Assembly: GCA_902773675.1 (NCBI GenBank)
Contig: CACYFN010000003.1
Span: 3,209 to 67,208, forward strand
Length of the DNA: 64,000 bases
Direction of reading: 5' to 3'
Source of the DNA: an uncultured Erysipelotrichaceae bacterium
GTDB lineage: Bacteria; Bacillota_I; Bacilli_A; RF39; UBA660
Shown: positions 14,786 through 37,227 of the stretch, one piece after another
How the letters are laid out: every line of letters begins with the position of its first letter
Position numbering within the stretch: the stretch's first letter is position 1
Translations under genes and position numbers: made by a program
Notes under the pieces: generated by a model
The model's database searches: none
Told to the model about the DNA's origin: nothing
Seen by the model: only the letters and a program-made list of their open reading frames with translations

Positions 14786-14835
14786 TTGATTTGTTTGTTG
14801 CAAATATGCTACAATATATTTGCAAGGAGAGAAAT
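14786..14835 (+). promoter_or_regulatory. Promoter with operator inverted repeat for XRE copy A
   Basis: TTGATT-18-TACAAT. The perfect 10-bp inverted repeat TTGCAAATAT (14798-14807) / ATATTTGCAA (14816-14825) flanks and overlaps the -10. A GGAGAG RBS follows. Confidence 0.5.
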
Positions 14836-15084
14836 ATGAATAAGATAAATGCTGAATTAATAAATGATGATGAATTTGATTTAATATGTAAATATATAAA
14901 ATTAAGAAATGAATCAAATATCAGTCAAACTGAATTAGCAAGAAAAGTGGGTATAGCTAGATCAACAATAGCTAGAATGGAAAGAAATCTACATTCTATA
15001 TCACTTGGAACTTTTACTAGATTATTAGAAGTAATGAATTATAAATTAGAAATAATAAAAAAGGAGGAAAAAAATGAAAAATGA
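14836..15084 (+). CDS. XRE-family helix-turn-helix transcriptional regulator (copy A)
   Basis: HTH segment ISQTELARKVGIARSTIARMERN. ATG at 14836 (the track ORF starts at an upstream in-frame TTG). About 90% identical to copy B at 16129. Confidence 0.8.
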   Translation: MNKINAELINDDEFDLICKYIKLRNESNISQTELARKVGIARSTIARMERNLHSISLGTFTRLLEVMNYKLEIIKKEEKNEK

Positions 15085-15907
15085 TATAATAGCATTAAAT
15101 AAAACGTTTGAAAACGAGAAAATTAGAACTATATGGAATAAGGACGAAGAAAAATATTATATTAGTGTAGTTGATATAGTAAAAGTTTTAATTGATTGTG
15201 ATTATCAACAAGCTAGAAATAATTGGAAAGTTATAAAATTTAGGTTAAAAAAAGAAGGAAATGAAACGGTTACAAATTGTAACCAGTTGAAATTGTTGTC
15301 ACAAGATGGAAAATATCGTTTAACTGATGTAGTTGATATTGAAGGAATGTTTAGGGTTATTGAATCAATTCCATCTAAAAAAGCTGAACCAATTAAGTTA
15401 TGGCTTGCTCATTTAGGAAAAGAGAGAATAGATTAAGAATACGATCCTGAAATAACAATTAATCGAGCGTTAGAAACATATAGAAGAAAAGGTTATTCTG
15501 ATGATTGGATTAATCAAAGATTAAAAGCAATTGATGCAAGAAAAGAATTTACTGATGAATTAAAGAATAATGGTATTGAAAGTAGCAAAGATTTTGCTAT
15601 TTTAACAGATTTATTAACGAAAGTATGGAGTGGCTATACAACTAAGGAATATAAACAATATAAAGGATTAACAAAAGAAAATTTAAGAGATAATATGACT
15701 AATATGGAATTAGTACTTAATATGTTAGCAGAAGTAACATCAACTGAAATAGCTAAGTCAAATGATAATAAAAATAAGGATAATGCTAAAGATTCAGTTA
15801 TACAAGGCGGTCTAATTGCTAAAAACACAAAAGAACAAATAGAAAGTAAAACCGGTAAAAAAATAGTAACAAGTACAAATAATAAAAATATAAAACAAAT
15901 AAAATAA
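15074..15907 (+). pseudogene. DinD/Bro-N-like DNA-damage-inducible protein, copy A, interrupted by an in-frame TAA at 15434-15436
   Basis: One reading frame 15074..15907 with a single internal stop (ERID*EYDPEI); copy B reads ERIDEIFDPSI at the same place. Bro-N core KYRLTDVVDIEGMFRVIESIPSKKAEPIKLWLAHLG, and a C-terminal part alignable with E. coli DinD. Confidence 0.5.
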
Positions 15908-15928
15908 GATATAAATAAGTCATTTTAG

Positions 15929-16030
15929 TTGGATACAGAACGTTATGTCGTTCCAATAAGGTTTCCAATTGATTACGATTCACAAGCTGCAATCAAAGCA
16001 AAGAATAGTAAAAAGAAAAAAACTAGGTAA
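15929..16030 (+). other. Diverged remnant of a ppdK 3' end (copy 2)
   Basis: An open frame encodes LDTERYVVPIRFPIDYDSQAAIKAKNSKKKKTR*. This aligns with the PpdK C-terminus ...LDYVSCSPYRVPIARLAAAQAAIKAKKNK*. Confidence 0.5.
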
Positions 16031-16078
16031 TTGAAGTGATGTGTCCTTCAAATAGTTCACAAAAACTAGTTTTTTTTG

Positions 16079-16128
16079 TTGATTTATTTGTTGCAAATAT
16101 GCTACAATATATTTGCGAGGAGAGAAAT
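16079..16128 (+). promoter_or_regulatory. Promoter with operator inverted repeat for XRE copy B
   Basis: Near-identical to 14786-14835. TTGCAAATAT (16091-16100) / ATATTTGCGA (16109-16118) around TACAAT. Confidence 0.5.
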
Positions 16129-16380
16129 ATGAATAAGATAAATGCTGAATTAATAAATGAGGATGAATTTGATTTAATATGTAAATATATAAAATTAAGA
16201 AATGAATCAAATATCAGTCAAACTGAATTAGCAAGAAGAGTGGGTATAGCTAGATCAACAATAGCTAGAATGGAAAGAAATTTGCATTCAATGTCACTCG
16301 GAACTTTTATTAAATTGTTAGAAGCAATGAATCATAAACTAGAAATAGTCAAAAAGGAGGATACTAATGAATCAAGATAA
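16129..16380 (+). CDS. XRE-family helix-turn-helix transcriptional regulator (copy B)
   Basis: MNKINAELINEDEFDLICKYIKLRNESNISQTELARRVGIARSTIARMERN. Paralogue of copy A. Confidence 0.8.
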   Translation: MNKINAELINEDEFDLICKYIKLRNESNISQTELARRVGIARSTIARMERNLHSMSLGTFIKLLEAMNHKLEIVKKEDTNESR

Positions 16381-17337: not shown

Positions 17338-17922
17338 ATGAAGAAAGGAATACTTTTAGCTATCATTTTATGTGGAATTCTATTATTTACAGGTTGCGAC
17401 AAAGAAGCAGGATCAAAGGAAATTAGCGGTATCAAAATATATAATGATTCAACAACTTATGCATACAAAAAAACTTTTGGAGGAGAATACTATTTACTAG
17501 TTATAAGATATGACAAATTAGGAAACTTTAAATATCTAGAATATACTGATAATTATGATTTAGATGAATCTGAACCAGAAACTAAAGCATATTCCGATAA
17601 AGAATTACAAAAACTTGCAGAAGAAGATGAATGCAAACATCTTGAAAATCTAGATTATGATGAATTTAAATCAATATGTAAAGTAAAAAATCATATTTTT
17701 ACTTATGGTTATTCAATAACAGATAAAACAATTAGTTCAGGATTATTAAATGAAAATGGATATAATGAATGGGGAATATTACCATCCATAATTGGAGACT
17801 TTAAATCAGTTGAAAATGAAGCAGCCGCTAAAGAATTATTCAATAAAACTAAAGAAAATTTGAATGCAAGTGATGGAGATTTTATGATATTTGCTAATAA
17901 AAAATTAGAATTAAATAATTAG
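17338..17922 (+). CDS. Lipoprotein (hypothetical)
   Basis: Signal peptide with lipobox LFTGC (MKKGILLAIILCGILLFTGCDKE). Confidence 0.7.
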   Translation: MKKGILLAIILCGILLFTGCDKEAGSKEISGIKIYNDSTTYAYKKTFGGEYYLLVIRYDKLGNFKYLEYTDNYDLDESEPETKAYSDKELQKLAEEDECKHLENLDYDEFKSICKVKNHIFTYGYSITDKTISSGLLNENGYNEWGILPSIIGDFKSVENEAAAKELFNKTKENLNASDGDFMIFANKKLELNN

Positions 17923-19919: not shown

Positions 19920-22091
19920 ATGAGTACAGAAATAATAGAAGAAATAAGTAAAAATTTAAATGTAGAAATAAAACAAGTTGAAAGCGTATTAAAATTACTA
20001 GAAGAAGGAAATACAATTCCATTTATAGCTAGATACAGAAAAGAAGCAACAGGTAATCTAAATGAAGAACAAATAAAAGTAATCGAAGAAAACTATACAT
20101 ATCAAGTAAATCTATTAAAAAGAAAAGAAGATGTAATAAGATTAATAGATGAAAAAGGTATGCTTACCGATGAATTAAAGGAAGAAATAATGGCTTGTAC
20201 TAAACTAGTAGAAGTAGAAGATTTATATAGACCATATAAAGAAAAGAAAAAAACAAAAGCAACCGAAGCCATTAAAAATGGATTAGAACCACTTGCTAAA
20301 TACATAATGACATTCCCAGTAAAAGGAAATATCGAAGAAGAAGCCAAAAAATATCTAAATGATAAAGTTCTAACACCACAGGATGCAATTCAGGGTGCTA
20401 GCTATATAATAGCTGAAAATATCAGTGATAATGCTAAATATAGAAAAGCAATTAGAGATAATACTTATAAATTTGGAACACTAATTACAAAATTAAAAAA
20501 GAATGCTCAAGATGAAGATAAAATATATGATATGTATTATGATTATCAAGAACAAGTAAGAAAAGTTAAACCACATCGAATACTTGCTATTAATAGAGGA
20601 GAAAAAGAAGGAATACTTTCAGTATCAATCGAAAATGATACTGATAGAACAATAGAATTTCTAAATAAAAGAGAAATTAAAAATGAAAAATCTATCGTAG
20701 TAGATATTGTAAAAGAAGCCATAAAAGATGCATATAAAAGATTAATACAACCTAGTATCGAAAGAGAAATAAGAAGTGATTTAACCGAAATAGCTGAAGT
20801 ATCAGCTATAGATAACTTTGGTAAAAACCTAGAAAACTTATTATTACAACCACCAATGAAAGAAAAAATAGTTCTTGCTTTTGATCCAGGATATATAAAT
20901 GGTTGTAAATTAGCAGTAATAGATAAAACAGGTAAATATCTAGATTCAACAGTAATAAAACCATTTCTTAATGGATCTAATAAAGATAAATTCATAGAAC
21001 AAAGTAAAACTATAGTAAAAAACTTAATAGATAAATATAACGTCGATATAATAGCTATAGGTAATGGTACCGCATCGCGTGAATCAGAAAAATTCTGTTA
21101 TGAATTAATACATGAATATAAACTAAATTGTAAATATGTAATAGTATCAGAAGCCGGAGCATCTATCTATAGTGCATCAAAAATAGCTATTGAAGAATTT
21201 CCAGATTTAGCAGTAGAAAAAAGAAGTGCTGTATCGATTGGAAGAAGACTTCAAGATCCACTTTCAGAACTAGTTAAAATTCCCCCAGAAGGAATAGGAG
21301 TAGGATTATATCAACACGATGTAAGTACCAAAAAACTATCAGAATCCCTAGACTTTGTCGTATCAAAAGTTGTAAACAGTGTAGGAGTTAATATCAATAC
21401 AGCATCTCCTTCATTATTAAAATATGTATCAGGAATAAAAAAGAATAACATCGATAAAATAATTGAATATCGTAATAAAGAAGGAAGAATTAATTCTAGA
21501 GAAGAAATCAAAAAGAAAAAATTATTAAGCGATAAAACATATGAGCAAGCAATAGGTTTCCTAAGAATTACTGAAGGAACAAATATCTTAGATGAAACAG
21601 CAATTCACCCAGAAAGTTATGAAGTAGCCACTAACTTATTAAAAAAATTAAATTGTACATTAAAAGATGTAGGAACAAATAATTTAATAAGTAAATTAGA
21701 TAATATTAATGTAGAAGAATTATCAAAAGAACTAAATACAGATATCTATACATTAGAAGATGTAATAGCCTCCTTAAAGAAACCAAATAGAGATCCAAGG
21801 GACGAAATGCCACAACCACTACTAAAAAGTGATGTACTTGATATCAATGACTTAAAAGTAGGAATGAAATTACAAGGAACAGTTAGAAATGTAGTTGACT
21901 TTGGAGCATTTATCGATATTGGACTTCATGAAGATGGCTTAGTACACATATCAAAAATAACTGATAAGTATATTAAACATCCTAGTGATGTATTAAGTGT
22001 CGGTGACATAGTAGACTGTTATGTAGATGAAATAAAATTAGACAAAAAAAAGGTCTCATTATCATTGATAGACCCATTAAAAACTAAATAA
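19920..22091 (+). CDS. tex: Transcription accessory protein Tex (YqgF/HhH/S1 domains)
   Basis: N-terminal IARYRKEATGNLNEEQI, and a C-terminal S1 domain (GMKLQGTVRNVVDFGAFIDIG). Promoter TTTACT-18-(TG)aTATACT upstream. ATG at 19920 after GGAGGG. Confidence 0.9.
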   Translation: MSTEIIEEISKNLNVEIKQVESVLKLLEEGNTIPFIARYRKEATGNLNEEQIKVIEENYTYQVNLLKRKEDVIRLIDEKGMLTDELKEEIMACTKLVEVEDLYRPYKEKKKTKATEAIKNGLEPLAKYIMTFPVKGNIEEEAKKYLNDKVLTPQDAIQGASYIIAENISDNAKYRKAIRDNTYKFGTLITKLKKNAQDEDKIYDMYYDYQEQVRKVKPHRILAINRGEKEGILSVSIENDTDRTIEFLNKREIKNEKSIVVDIVKEAIKDAYKRLIQPSIEREIRSDLTEIAEVSAIDNFGKNLENLLLQPPMKEKIVLAFDPGYINGCKLAVIDKTGKYLDSTVIKPFLNGSNKDKFIEQSKTIVKNLIDKYNVDIIAIGNGTASRESEKFCYELIHEYKLNCKYVIVSEAGASIYSASKIAIEEFPDLAVEKRSAVSIGRRLQDPLSELVKIPPEGIGVGLYQHDVSTKKLSESLDFVVSKVVNSVGVNINTASPSLLKYVSGIKKNNIDKIIEYRNKEGRINSREEIKKKKLLSDKTYEQAIGFLRITEGTNILDETAIHPESYEVATNLLKKLNCTLKDVGTNNLISKLDNINVEELSKELNTDIYTLEDVIASLKKPNRDPRDEMPQPLLKSDVLDINDLKVGMKLQGTVRNVVDFGAFIDIGLHEDGLVHISKITDKYIKHPSDVLSVGDIVDCYVDEIKLDKKKVSLSLIDPLKTK

Positions 22092-22161
22092 TAAAAAAAA
22101 GAAACCGCCCCCTGAGCAGTTTCTATAAAAGAATAAAAAGGGGTTGGCTAGTGTGATACTA

Positions 22162-22192
22162 GCACCAATTCGGTTTTCCGAACTGGTGCTTT
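22162..22192 (+). terminator. Putative terminator hairpin downstream of tex
   Basis: GCACCAATTCGG-tttt-CCGAACTGGTGC (one mismatch) followed by TTT. It is preceded by a second small hairpin GCTAGT-gtgat-ACTAGC. The T-tract is short. Confidence 0.4.
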
Positions 22193-22299
22193 ATATACTA
22201 AATCAAAAAAGGTATTTTGTCAAGCACTTTTTTGATTTTTTTTGAATTTTATAAAAATAATTAAATTTTTGAATATATTATTACTAAGTAAGGAGGATT

Positions 22300-22627
22300 A
22301 TGAAAAAATATTTAATAATAATTATTATTTTCTTAGTAGGATGTAGTAAAAAAAAAAAAAGAAATATTAGTATGCAATAATCAAGATACAGAAATAACCT
22401 TTAATTTTGAAAATAACAAATCCATAAACTATCAAAAAGTAACTCATATTAAACTAAATAATAATCAAGAAGCCATGAATTATAAAAATGATGATTATGA
22501 TAAACTAGAAGTAGTAGATAATATAGTAAATATGTATATAGATGAAAAAATAGATGATATGAATATTGAAGAAGTAAAATCATTATATGAAAAATCTGGA
22601 TATAACTGCAAAAAAAAATCACCATAG
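22300..22627 (+). pseudogene. Lipoprotein gene interrupted by a frameshift at an A13 homopolymer (phase-variation candidate)
   Basis: AAGGAGG RBS, then ATG and MKKYLIIIIIFLVGC (lipobox LVGC). The A13 run (22348-22360) gives a stop after 26 codons. The frame one base further along is open from 22361 to the TAG at 22625-22627 and encodes about 88 more residues. Confidence 0.55.
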
Positions 22628-22630
22628 TGA

Positions 22631-22864
22631 TTAATTATCTGAAAATAAATCATTAATACTTATATTTAGAGCCTTACAAATATTAAGCATAGTAGATAAA
22701 GTAACATTTTTATATTCTTTACACGATTCAATTTGTTTAATATAAGAAATACTAAAATTAGCCTTTTCCGCAAGCTGTTCCTGAGTTAAATTTAACTTAT
22801 TTCTATAATATTTAACATTATTACTAAATATATTATAATTATTCAAAATATCATTATTCTTCAT
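22631..22864 (-). CDS. XRE-family HTH transcriptional regulator
   Basis: LTQEQLAEKANFSISYIKQIE HTH. It is divergent from a second HTH gene. Confidence 0.7.
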   Translation of the reverse strand: MKNNDILNNYNIFSNNVKYYRNKLNLTQEQLAEKANFSISYIKQIESCKEYKNVTLSTMLNICKALNISINDLFSDN

Positions 22865-22963
22865 AGTACCACCTACTTGAGATTATTTTCTCATATTTTT
22901 TTTATTAAATCAGTACACTATCAGTGAACTATATGATATAATATCTAAAGAAAGAAGGATATT

Positions 22964-23173
22964 ATGCATAACAAATTAAAAGAAATAAGATTAAAAAATC
23001 ATTATACTCAAAAATATATGGCTGAAAAACTAAAAATAAGTAAACCATTCTATTCATTCCTAGAAAATGATAAAAGAATCCTAACATATGATATGGCTAT
23101 CAAAATAGCTAAAATATTTAATACAAAACCAGATAGATTATTTTATGAAGAACATGTAAATAGAGTTGATTAA
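22964..23173 (+). CDS. XRE-family HTH transcriptional regulator (Cro/CI-like small protein)
   Basis: YTQKYMAEKLKISKPFYSFLEN HTH. Divergently arranged with 22631..22864 across a 100-bp intergenic region. Confidence 0.65.
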   Translation: MHNKLKEIRLKNHYTQKYMAEKLKISKPFYSFLENDKRILTYDMAIKIAKIFNTKPDRLFYEEHVNRVD

Positions 23174-23216
23174 TTATTAAAAAAAGTGTATAATTTTTAT
23201 AGTCGTAGGAGGAATT

Positions 23217-23840
23217 ATGAAAAGTATACAAAATTTTAAAATAACAAATTTACTATTATCATTAGTAATATTTATAATTGGTTTAATATTAATGACTAAT
23301 TCATCATTTATTATTGATATACTAGCTTATATTATTGGAGGTTTCCTAGGATTAATTGGTATCATAGAAATAATATCATCATTAATACATAAAAATGATA
23401 ATTCAAGTACATTAAAAATTATATTTGGAATACTTTTGATATCAGGAGGAGCTTTAGTTGCAATATTCCCTAATGTAGTAGATTTTACAATAAGAATAAT
23501 CTTTGGAGGATGGATACTATTTATTGGAGTAAGTAGATTAATAATTGCTCTAACAATAAAAAAAGTTGACCAAGTAGGATTTAAAACATTCCTAATAACA
23601 TCTATTATAATGGTTATATCAGGAGTAGTTATATTAATAAGTTTCTATGAATTATTAGGATTATTATTAGCTATCTATGCAATATCAGAAATAGTTAATT
23701 ATATTTACTTTAATCTTAATAAGAAAAAATATAGTACAGTATTTGACTTTGAAGAAAATATAACTCCAACTAAAAATAAAAAAATAATAAAAAAAGAAAT
23801 AAAAGAAAAAGAAGCTATTGACGCCGTTATTGACGAATAG
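23217..23840 (+). CDS. DUF308/HdeD-like repeat membrane protein
   Basis: Internally repeated hydrophobic segments (IGLILM...IIGGFLGLIGIIEII...IFGILLISGGALVAIFP...) typical of the DUF308 family. Confidence 0.5.
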   Translation: MKSIQNFKITNLLLSLVIFIIGLILMTNSSFIIDILAYIIGGFLGLIGIIEIISSLIHKNDNSSTLKIIFGILLISGGALVAIFPNVVDFTIRIIFGGWILFIGVSRLIIALTIKKVDQVGFKTFLITSIIMVISGVVILISFYELLGLLLAIYAISEIVNYIYFNLNKKKYSTVFDFEENITPTKNKKIIKKEIKEKEAIDAVIDE

Positions 23841-25788
23841 CTTCTTCTTTTTCATTTATAGTAGGAATTAAATTATCTAATCCTTCATCATTATAAGTAG
23901 GCTGAGTACCCTTAAGATAATAAAACATTACAGATTTTTCATCATTAGATACCTCACCACTAATAGGATTAACCATTACCCCAACCACATTATCAGGCAT
24001 TTTATACCACTTAACATCCTTATCCTTCAAATATTCATTAACACTATTACTCCACATCTTTTTAATCTGTTTACCCACATCACTACCAGTATCACTATTA
24101 TCATCATATCCAGCCCATATACTCATAACAATATTACCATTATATCCAACAACCAAATTATCCGTATCCGTAGAACCAGTCTTAATAGAAAAAGTATTAT
24201 TTAATTTACCAGTTAAATCATAACAAGTAGGATAAATATAATCAACAAAACGATAATCATAAGTACTAGTCAGTAATTGATTAATAATATAAACCAAACT
24301 AGAATTTAAAACTTGTTCCTCATCATCTTTATATTCATATAAAATATTATTATTCATATCAGTAATCCTATTAATTAAATGTCCTTTAACTTTATATCCC
24401 AAATTAGCAAGTGCACTATAAGCAGAAGTAAGCTCAATAATATTAATCTCTTCACTACCCAAAGCCAGAGATGGAATAGCACTTAATTTAGAAGTAATAC
24501 CAACTCTTTTTAAAATATTAACCAGAGTATCTTCTCCTAAAAACAAATGTGTCTTAATCGCATAAATATTATCCGAATAAGCAATAGCAGCTGCCATAGA
24601 TATCTTTTTATTTGCGTATTTATCATTAAAATTAGAAGGACTATAAGTTTGATCATTTGAAAAAACAAAAGTAGTAACTTCACTAGTAAAAGTAGAAGAA
24701 GCAGTAAAACCATTCTCTAAAGCAGAATAATAAAGAAATGGTTTTAAAGTAGATCCTACTTGTCTTTTAGAACTAGTAGCCCTATTAAATTGACTCTTAT
24801 TATAATCAACACCACCAGTTAAAGCAATAATACCTCCATCATTAGGATTCATCATCACACTAGCAATCTCTAAATTATCAATATTAATATTATCCTTCAT
24901 ACTTTTTTCCAATATATTTTGGGCATTAATATCCAAATTAGTATAAATTTTTAAACCACCGGTTTCCAAAAAAGAAGTAGGAATAGAATTAATACCATCA
25001 AGTTCCTTCATAACTGCATCTTTATAATATAACAAAGTATTAAGCTCATACTTAGAACTATGACCATAATAAGTTAACTCCTCATTTAAAGCATTATTCA
25101 TTTCACTATCACTAATATAACCATTAATAACCATTGATTTCAAAACTAATTTCTGCCTTTCTTTAGCCTTATCTTCATTAGTTAAAGGAGAATAATTACT
25201 AGGAGACTTAGGAATTCCTGCCAATATACTAGCTTCTCCTAAAGTTAACTCACTAGAATTCTTATTAAAATAATAATGGCTTGCATTCTCAATACCATAC
25301 ACACCACCATAATTAATAGTATTTAAATATCCTTCCAAAATTTCATCCTTATCATATTGAGATTCCAGTCTTACAGTAAGCCATGCTTCCTTAATTTTCC
25401 TCTCCCAGGTTTTATCAAAATTCAAAAATAAATTTTTAACTAATTGCTGGGAAATAGTAGAAGCCCCTTGCAAATTCTTTTTATTAGTAATATTAACATA
25501 CATAGACTTAATAATTCTAAAAAAATCAAAACCCTTATGCTTATAAAAATTCTTATCCTCAATCGATATAGTTGCATTAATCAAATAAGGAGAAATATTA
25601 TCTAATTTAACCCATTCATTAGATCCATCAAATAGCTCACCATTATTATCATAAATATAATATCCACTCGCACTATTAATATCAAGTTTATTAGTAGTAG
25701 ATGCATAAAAATATAAACCATAATATAAAATAATAAAAAGAGTAATAAAAAAACCACTAATTTTAATAATTTTTTTAATAATTTTCAT
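23827..25788 (-). CDS. Class A penicillin-binding protein (bifunctional glycosyltransferase/transpeptidase, PBP1A-like)
   Basis: N-terminal TM, the GT51 motifs EDKNFYKHKGFD and GASTISQQLVKN, and the transpeptidase SxxK (GSTLKPF). Confidence 0.85.
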   Translation of the reverse strand: MKIIKKIIKISGFFITLFIILYYGLYFYASTTNKLDINSASGYYIYDNNGELFDGSNEWVKLDNISPYLINATISIEDKNFYKHKGFDFFRIIKSMYVNITNKKNLQGASTISQQLVKNLFLNFDKTWERKIKEAWLTVRLESQYDKDEILEGYLNTINYGGVYGIENASHYYFNKNSSELTLGEASILAGIPKSPSNYSPLTNEDKAKERQKLVLKSMVINGYISDSEMNNALNEELTYYGHSSKYELNTLLYYKDAVMKELDGINSIPTSFLETGGLKIYTNLDINAQNILEKSMKDNINIDNLEIASVMMNPNDGGIIALTGGVDYNKSQFNRATSSKRQVGSTLKPFLYYSALENGFTASSTFTSEVTTFVFSNDQTYSPSNFNDKYANKKISMAAAIAYSDNIYAIKTHLFLGEDTLVNILKRVGITSKLSAIPSLALGSEEINIIELTSAYSALANLGYKVKGHLINRITDMNNNILYEYKDDEEQVLNSSLVYIINQLLTSTYDYRFVDYIYPTCYDLTGKLNNTFSIKTGSTDTDNLVVGYNGNIVMSIWAGYDDNSDTGSDVGKQIKKMWSNSVNEYLKDKDVKWYKMPDNVVGVMVNPISGEVSNDEKSVMFYYLKGTQPTYNDEGLDNLIPTINEKEEAIRQ

Positions 25789-36663: not shown

Positions 36664-37227
36664 ATGAAAAAAATATTTATACTAATTATTGTAGGCTTAT
36701 TTATAATAACAGGTTGTGGAAAAACTAATGAAGCAAGTAATAATGTAGTAGAAAATAAAAACGAAGTAACAAATAAAGAAGAAAAAATAGTAAAACCAAC
36801 AGCAGATGGAGATGAATTAACAGTAGAGTCATTAAACTTCTTTATACCAACAGGATATACTGAAAACTCATACAATGGTATGATGGGAGTATATGATTAT
36901 TATACAGGTAATGTTACTTTAAGTGAACTTAATGTAGGAGTAGTAGTTACATGGAATGGAAACTATAAAGATTCAAATGCCAAAGATTATATTGAAAATA
37001 AATCTAATACAGCAAAATCAATTCATCTAACAAGTGTAACAACAGAAAAAATTAATGGTACTGATTGGTATGTATTTTCAAATGAAAACAATTATTACTA
37101 TGCAGCTGAATATGATGAAAACTTATATGAAGTAACAGTAGAAAAAAGAAATGATCCACAAAACTTATTTGAAACAACCAATGAAATGGTTAAAAAAACA
37201 TTATTCTTTTTAGAAACAGAAGAATAA
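36664..37227 (+). CDS. Lipoprotein (hypothetical)
   Basis: MKKIFILIIVGLFIITGCGK, with lipobox ITGC. ATG at 36664. Confidence 0.6.
   Translation: MKKIFILIIVGLFIITGCGKTNEASNNVVENKNEVTNKEEKIVKPTADGDELTVESLNFFIPTGYTENSYNGMMGVYDYYTGNVTLSELNVGVVVTWNGNYKDSNAKDYIENKSNTAKSIHLTSVTTEKINGTDWYVFSNENNYYYAAEYDENLYEVTVEKRNDPQNLFETTNEMVKKTLFFLETEE

Follow-up and report, generated by a model that had tools for sequence, protein, structure and literature searches.

The lipoprotein gene that begins at position 22300 of the 64,000-nucleotide stretch of DNA analyzed here (hereafter the window, with positions counted from its first nucleotide) raises a simple question. Is a gene whose reading frame is interrupted by 13 consecutive A residues truly broken, or has it been turned off by a tract that can also turn it on? 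A sequence-only reading of the locus had proposed slipped-strand phase variation, and to us it likewise seems fairly probable that the run is a real, slippage-prone poly-A tract with ON and OFF alleles, which behaves as a simple-sequence switch (a 'contingency locus') that is turned ON and OFF by mutation. In that case, the 108-codon gene would yield a small membrane-anchored lipoprotein carrying a YehR-like β-sheet/helix domain on a short Lys-rich tether, and its host would be an uncultured, AT-rich (24% GC), small-genome gut or rumen member of the Bacilli. The tether codons AGT AAT CAA AAA AAA would have given way to a pure poly-A run within the species, this pure run would be long enough to mispair during replication, and the gain or loss of one A would decide whether the mature domain is in frame. 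The OFF length (A13, with a 26-codon product) would be that of the window, and near-identical populations with A12 would represent the in-frame length.

The basic anatomy of the locus, as it had been read from the letters, is borne out by coordinates and frames: a ribosome-binding site, a lipoprotein signal, the A13 run, a stop after 26 codons and an adjacent frame of 88 codons that is open up to 22627. The ATG at 22300 opens the gene on the plus strand, and a Shine-Dalgarno sequence, read from the sequence as AAGGAGG (22290-22296), lies 3 nt 5′ of it and is kept as (A/T)AGGAGGA(T/A)TATG in sister-species loci. Codons 1 to 15 (22300-22344) read MKKYLIIIIIFLVGC, in which a positive n-region and a hydrophobic h-region precede a lipobox, L-V-G-C, of the form [LVI][ASTVI][GAS]C (MKK-YLIIIIIF-LVGC). 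Cys15 is encoded by TGT (22342-44) and is followed by AGT. The run itself (22348-22360, plus strand) consists of exactly 13 A residues, covers codons 17-21, and falls within the tether, a non-conserved stretch that joins the lipid-anchor Cys to the folded domain.

Frame 0 reads CSKKKKRNISMQ (with a KKKKRNISMQ stretch that starts in the run) and ends at a TAA stop (22378-22380), such that the complete product of the A13 allele is the 26-aa peptide MKKYLIIIIIFLVGCSKKKKRNISMQ. The +1 frame is open from GAA at 22361 to TAG at 22625-22627 (88 codons, plus strand) and encodes the mature domain, including the peptide EILVCNNQDTEITFNFENNK. These codons are identical to those of in-frame alleles and carry no second lesion. 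As had been predicted, loss of one A restores an ORF of 108 aa and gain of two an ORF of 109 aa (alleles A12 and A15, respectively), and the A12 product is the known protein P0004. The length of this 5′ coding homopolymer sets the reading frame of the lipoprotein ORF, and the tract is the sole cause of the out-of-frame state in the window.

An intact lipoprotein gene does stand behind the frameshift, as evident from the conservation of its family. When the repaired product was compared with 5.8 billion proteins, three clusters of full-length homologues (108-110 aa) were recovered with 98%, 72% and 53% identity, and the window protein minus one A is 100% identical to P0004, which is called on conspecific contigs of several samples. 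A profile search of 1.84 billion representative proteins returned only 18 family members, and the family is thus narrow. In an alignment of 17 members, the lipobox Cys (17 of 17), Cys25, Cys103, F36, K93 and E97 are invariant, and the Lys/Asn-rich tether between the lipobox and the conserved 'L-x-C', which houses the tract, varies in both length and sequence. We conclude that the gene is genuine and conserved. Two other lipobox proteins encoded in the window (17338-17922 and 36664-37227) suggest that a lipoprotein pathway (Lgt/LspA) exists in this organism.

Searches against Pfam found nothing significant for the protein or for 16 homologues, apart from one homologue that matches LPAM_1; no family member matched a DUF1307-type Pfam model at E ≤ 0.01, and a sequence-profile search of the PDB returned signal-peptide matches only. 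An AlphaFold model built with the 17-sequence alignment, which supersedes a run with three sequences (pLDDT 65.7), has a pLDDT of 88.6, with low confidence for residues 1-19 (residues 16-19 have low pLDDT), and is predicted to fold from approximately residue 20 onward into a β-sheet with two helices. The best fold match of this model is the E. coli lipoprotein YehR (PDB 2JOE; DUF1307), at 13% sequence identity. This match would name a fold rather than a role, because YehR itself is without established function.

The organism that carries the gene is apparently absent from the GTDB species representatives. The Tex protein encoded beside the locus is at most 80% identical to that of any GTDB species representative, and a scan of these representatives with peptide patterns of the family found no relative of the lipoprotein. 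The relatives found through Tex are MAGs of uncultured bacteria from gut and rumen (rabbit, human, deer, sheep, yak and cattle), under the labels Bacilli, Tenericutes, 'Mycoplasma sp. CAG:877' or 'Clostridium sp. CAG:594', one of them being a circular 1.2-Mb contig. At the level of order, the organism may be of the RF39/RFN20 type. The presence of a class A PBP gene (23827-25788) rules out a wall-less mycoplasma.

How unusual is a run of 13 A residues in such a genome? The GC content of the window is 24% and its plus strand is 44% A, such that base composition alone predicts approximately 0.5-0.8 A13 runs per 64 kb. Under this simple model, the mere presence of one A13 run is insignificant. 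The distribution of actual run lengths is a different matter: the 64-kb window holds 39 runs of A8, seven of A9, none of A10 to A12 and the single A13, T runs do not exceed 8, and the longest other homopolymer is 9. The loci examined from related species, 80 in number and 701 kb in total, contain 16 runs of 9, four of 10 and one of 12, the last at the end of a contig; no run in them reaches 13. Codon choice in 64 background genes reveals the same avoidance, in that AAG accounts for 7% of isolated Lys codons, 14% of those in KK and 39% of those in KKK; only two of 23 KKK runs are all-AAA, and the sole KKKK run contains AAG. The lipoprotein gene is the exception, with four AAA codons in succession (and one more A) at the tract and three at its 3′ end. 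We regard codon-level avoidance of poly-A in a genome of 24% GC as a clean signature of selection against slippery runs. The tract, far above the background length of the genome, is exceptional for genome and clade and is not compositional noise.

To read the tract in other populations, contigs were recovered through anchors in neighboring genes, which are unbiased with regard to the state of the lipoprotein gene, and through the homologues themselves. The comparison set comprises 13 distinct contigs from 13 samples that are 99.3-99.9% identical to the window over 0.7-6.3 kb; they derive from ENA rumen-type assemblies (k87_ and k141_ record prefixes, 'STEW19', PRJEB21624). Alleles were read in the 15-16 nt between GGATGT and GAAATATTA. 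Six samples carry the interrupted, in-frame sequence AGTAATCAAAAAAAA, that is AGTAATCA8 (AGT AAT CAA AAA AAA; Ser-Asn-Gln-Lys-Lys). AGT followed by A12, also in frame, is present in ERZ27280225, ERZ27280248, ERZ1029116, ERZ914825 and ERZ27280143. The out-of-frame form, AGT followed by A13, is found in ERZ1029112 and in the window, and ERZ28613586 carries A15, in frame. The consensus state is therefore in frame in 12 of the 14 sequences (13 contigs and the window), and several alleles co-occur inside the same sample sets. The comparison of related strains that the sequence-only reading had recommended has thus turned up A12 (five sequences), A13 (two) and A15 (one), with ON and OFF lengths among populations that are more than 99% identical. 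A scan of JGI metagenomes with the tract flanks and a variable gap gave 0 matches.

The flanking sequences are instructive. ERZ27280225, with A12, agrees with the window at all 18 variable flank sites, and over 6.3 kb the tract is the only indel between the two, with four SNPs at 21077-21110 inside Tex. The second A13 contig (ERZ1029112; L005/L009) is three SNPs from the window, and its remaining background is common to a contig with the interrupted allele; being on a different haplotype, it is not the same assembly as the window. Because A13 recurs on this second contig, and because the ERZ27280225 twin exists, A13 is no quirk of one assembly, and A12 and A13 share a background. ON and OFF lengths both occur in wild populations, even on one flanking haplotype. 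Within Tex, a cluster of SNPs and small indels of approximately 45 nt (21077-21123) separates the window from ERZ27280225, ERZ914825 and ERZ27280143, with identical flanks; local recombination or a join made during assembly may account for it. We also considered contig breaks as a signal of heterogeneity and rejected them, as the short contigs L007 and L008 end at 22424, 63 nt short of the tract.

A second A-rich run lies at the other end of the gene. This A9 run (22610-22618, plus strand) is 3′ of the last conserved residues, Cys103-Lys104, and affects only a short C-terminal tail, which reads KKKSP-stop with A9 and KKNHHSD-stop with A8. The A8 version, present in ERZ914825 and ERZ27280143, matches the 110-aa proteins P0005 and P0007, and its ORF overlaps the convergent HTH gene by 4 nt. 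In sister species, TAA directly follows Cys-Lys; here, this TAA has been absorbed into the A8/A9 run and a tail of KKSP or KNHHSD has been added.

The sister species also permit a view of how old the main tract might be. Their tether reads Lys-Asn-Ile-Lys-Lys (AAA AAT ATA AAA AAA) or Lys-Asn-Asn-Asn-Thr (AAA AAT AAT AAT ACA), and that of more distant members reads Ser-Asn-Lys-Lys or similar. From these tether sequences, the interrupted Ser-Asn-Gln-Lys-Lys is probably ancestral, and the pure run probably arose within the species of the window. The pure tract is absent from six of the 14 conspecific sequences and from the sister species, and so there is no sign of long-term selection that keeps it; its appearance is that of a young hotspot and not of a switch kept over long periods. 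The interrupted, A12 and A15 alleles fill the same 15 nt and differ by replacement of non-A nucleotides beside the run (T,C to A,A; then G,T to A,A). Transient-misalignment mutagenesis at the borders of a run yields equal-length replacement of this kind, and these alleles may have arisen in this manner. The sister-species scaffold L103 (STEW19) offers a similar case, where A16 replaces 16 nt (TGATGATAGTAAAAAA) at equal length (324-360), beside a 26-nt deletion. This copy of the gene is dead, and gene callers render it as fragments of 54 aa and 58 aa (P0027). Equal-length homopolymerization, in L103 as in A12 and A15, could be a product of misalignment mutagenesis or an assembler artefact of STEW19 scaffolds.

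Could the A13 allele be an error of sequencing or assembly, such that the true length is A12, the gene is constitutively intact and the window carries a one-base consensus mistake? Runs of 13 are error-prone, and short-read consensus may be off by one base at this length. Moreover, the tract is the only defect of the gene, its repaired product is identical to a protein found elsewhere, the closest haplotype (ERZ27280225) has A12, and the related data are metagenome assemblies. We nevertheless judge this explanation to be very unlikely. A13 is also present in an independent assembly from another sample and on another haplotype (L005/L009). A general homopolymer-error problem of the assembly was rejected, because approximately 40 A8/A9 tracts of the window sit inside intact ORFs and no other gene in the window is visibly frameshifted at a homopolymer. 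In the 6-kb neighborhood, only three homopolymers vary in length (the A13 tract, the A9 run at 22610-18 and a T8 run at 22236-43), whereas those at 22044, 22093 and 22896 (A8/T8) keep one length in all 13 assemblies. Each length variant other than A15 is common to at least two samples (A13 in two, A12 in five, A8 of the 22610 run in two and T9 in five), which argues against random error. The A15 call is less trustworthy, since its source scaffold (ERZ28613586; L010/L096) has a PBP gene that is disrupted by an N-run and by the loss of 10 bp (window 23942-25007). Finally, if the population sampled were a mixture of A12 and A13, the choice of one length by the assembler would be the phase-variation scenario itself and not its refutation.

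If the A13 allele is real, it might still be an incipient pseudogene, that is, a dispensable gene struck at a chance hotspot in an unconstrained tether, unselected and with no role in switching. One-way decay of this kind would suit a tract that is young and not conserved, a family that is narrow and patchy (18 representatives), a sister-species copy that is clearly dead (L103, with its 26-nt deletion and A16 in mid-gene) and a second tract that has already abolished the ancestral stop and whose length drifts between A9 and A8. We consider decay unlikely, however, as the window allele has no second lesion and its 88 downstream codons equal those of in-frame alleles, the same flanking haplotype is known with A12, and a change of ±1 in a run of 12-13 nt is intrinsically reversible at a high rate. 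The gene is also in frame in most populations, and its residues are strongly conserved within the family. Rescue at the level of expression is a possibility to which we give more weight, though on balance it is doubtful: slippage by RNA polymerase (-1 A or +2 A), possibly with ribosome sliding, could restore the frame in some messages, such that the tract tunes dose. The genome is AT-rich and reduced, with relatives of approximately 1.2 Mb, the downstream frame is undamaged, and the run of 13 is longer than the 10-11 A tracts that give full-length product in Blochmannia and Buchnera (PMC3017870). Against this proposal, the frameshifts of those endosymbionts are conserved between populations or species, whereas here A13 is a minority allele and the frameshift is not shared by relatives: the gene is in frame throughout the sister species and in 12 of 14 conspecific sequences. 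Ribosomal frameshifting by -1 was rejected as a means of rescue because that frame reads KKKKKY-stop and terminates at once; only +1 or -2 shifts would be productive. Slippage during expression is in any case compatible with a switch in the DNA and would complement rather than replace it.

We therefore retain the preferred explanation of a mutational ON/OFF switch. The length changes presumably occur by replication slippage and would be reversible, the lipoprotein is expected to be surface-exposed, and switching may have adaptive value. The OFF state is probably leaky ('low'), since RNA polymerase also slips on runs of such length. From its alleles, the locus would work like a phase-variable locus. 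We do not claim an evolved contingency locus, because the tract is not conserved and such conservation is often required of evolved loci of this type. A loss allele, whether deleterious or neutral, would account for OFF equally well.

A bolder proposal, which strikes us as rather doubtful, is that the wild populations of this gut symbiont, itself never cultured, show a contingency locus in the course of being born. One species seems to hold the full series of AAT CAA AAA AAA (stable), A12 (ON), A13 (OFF) and A15 (ON), and the run seems to lengthen as bases beside it are converted, with the total constant at 15 nt, and to slip only afterwards. If it were true that the tract allele rises because switching is useful, for example for escape from phage, protozoa or host antibody directed at this surface protein, then this would be a natural example of the origin of phase variation. 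Also speculative is a role for the OFF product. The mature N-terminus of the A12 and A13 alleles, Cys-Ser-Lys-Lys-Lys-Lys, is the peptide of the synthetic TLR2 agonists Pam2CSK4 and Pam3CSK4. The OFF allele, which retains the signal peptide and Cys-Ser-Lys4-RNISMQ (lipid-CSKKKKRNISMQ if processed), might release a short lipopeptide.

The lipoprotein gene stands alone, with a small-RNA candidate and two HTH regulator genes as neighbors. The candidate RNA, of approximately 99 nt, is encoded on the minus strand (22092-22223, including its promoter) and adjoins the lipoprotein gene on the 5′ side in a divergent and syntenic arrangement. Its promoter (22223-22195) consists of a perfect -35 element, TTGACA, a 17-nt spacer and TAGTAT; a 13-bp 5′ hairpin (22190-22161) follows, and an intrinsic terminator with a U-run lies at 22124-22100. 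In sister species, the identity of the RNA is approximately 100%, as against only 53-76% for the lipoprotein. The RNA also remains beside the lipoprotein gene in another species (L104, 690-1292), where an inserted NUDIX gene sets the two apart from Tex. Eight loci of more distant relatives contain a further eleven copies, which are frequently arranged in tandem. A 45-nt core, GCUAGUAUCACACUAGCCAACCCCUUUUUAUUCUUUUAU, is almost invariant in 13 aligned copies, where only the last two positions vary; a C-rich core, CCAACCCC, is likewise almost invariant, and the terminator stem exhibits compensatory changes at three pairs. Rfam has no family for this RNA, the best match (22 bits) being a terminator, and at the gathering threshold nothing was found in the entire window, which also has no tRNAs. 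The small RNA may be the more novel object of this neighborhood. In one more distant relative (L017, 6340-7159), two tandem copies of the lipoprotein gene lie 3′ of the small-RNA element.

Between the minus-strand promoter of the small RNA and the lipoprotein gene lies a run of T8 (22236-22243), 57-64 nt 5′ of the ATG, which is T9 in five conspecific samples and longer than T8 (T10 by eye) in the sister species L105; contig L108 ends exactly at this run. A change between T8 and T9 could alter the promoter or UP-element geometry of either gene. We do not claim T8/T9 as a promoter-spacer switch, because a promoter scan of 21900-23300, with 21 sites versus 14.3±3.4 expected, is not above noise and is uninformative for a plus-strand promoter. 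Elsewhere in the window, two near-duplicate HTH genes (14791-15084 and 16036-16380) have a common N-terminal sequence, and the 120-aa ORF (15074-15436) and 70-aa ORF (15695-15907) between them resemble a split gene of the Bro-N/antirepressor type. The region (14791-16380) may be the remnant of a mobile element.

Homopolymer switching of surface lipoproteins is a textbook phenomenon in mycoplasmas and some pathogens, and has hardly been examined in the uncultured, genome-reduced Bacilli of rumen and gut. The present locus offers a defined site for scoring by PCR or in sequencing reads, with ON and OFF alleles circulating in cattle cohorts and with the interrupted allele as an internal control that is unable to slip. 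Gene callers split or drop the gene (fragments of 26 aa and 50 aa), and consequently pangenomes built from MAGs will record as missing a gene that is simply out of phase. The wider significance is modest, since the mechanism is not new and the protein has no assigned function.

Among known systems, the closest parallels are lipoproteins of mycoplasmas. In Mycoplasma hominis, the 5′ poly-A tract of vaa is ON at 8 A and OFF at 7 or 9, with switching at 10^-3 to 10^-4 (Zhang & Wise 1997, as relayed in PMC524362). Both genes encode lipoproteins in AT-rich, host-associated relatives of the Bacilli, Vaa being a surface lipoprotein, and both have a 5′ coding poly-A run of strain-variable length in which ±1 truncates the product. 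Unlike the Vaa tract of 7-9 A, whose rate was measured in clonal cultures, the present tract is 12-15 A long, is missing from approximately half of the strains, and resides in the gene of an unrelated protein. The p78 gene of M. fermentans, which encodes an ABC-transporter lipoprotein, has a 5′ poly-A run of 7 or 6 A (cited in PMC2831843). There too, an A run lies near the start of a lipoprotein coding region and a single-A indel inactivates the gene, but P78 is a substrate-binding component encoded within an operon, whereas the gene examined here is a stand-alone gene for a 108-aa protein. These precedents lend substance to the initial claim that a homopolymer at the junction of signal peptide and mature protein is a hallmark of phase-variable lipoproteins, although as a general rule the claim goes too far, given that the two other lipoprotein genes of the window (17338-17922 and 36664-37227) have no A tract.

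A Firmicute surface-protein gene with a 5′ poly-A run, inlA of Listeria monocytogenes, provides a further comparison. Its run is A6/A7, its revertants arise at approximately 10^-7, and its frameshifts have arisen independently more than once and can revert at elevated rates, in line with a general '5′ homopolymeric tract' model (Orsi, Bowen & Wiedmann 2010, PMC2831843). The run is much longer here, and from this difference a run of A12-13 should slip far more often than that of inlA. In Blochmannia and Buchnera, tracts of 10-11 A undergo transcriptional slippage that gives full-length product, with approximately 30% of transcripts corrected (PMC3017870, citing Tamas et al. 2008). The resemblance lies in a long poly-A tract that carries a 1-nt indel while the remainder of the gene is intact, in a genome that is AT-rich and reduced, and the difference in that the endosymbiont frameshifts are conserved and affect essential genes, whereas A13 is a minority allele of a gene that looks non-essential. 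The mechanism is thus already known; what is new is its occurrence in a different protein family, on a run much longer than those of Vaa, P78 and inlA, and in an uncultured rumen lineage.
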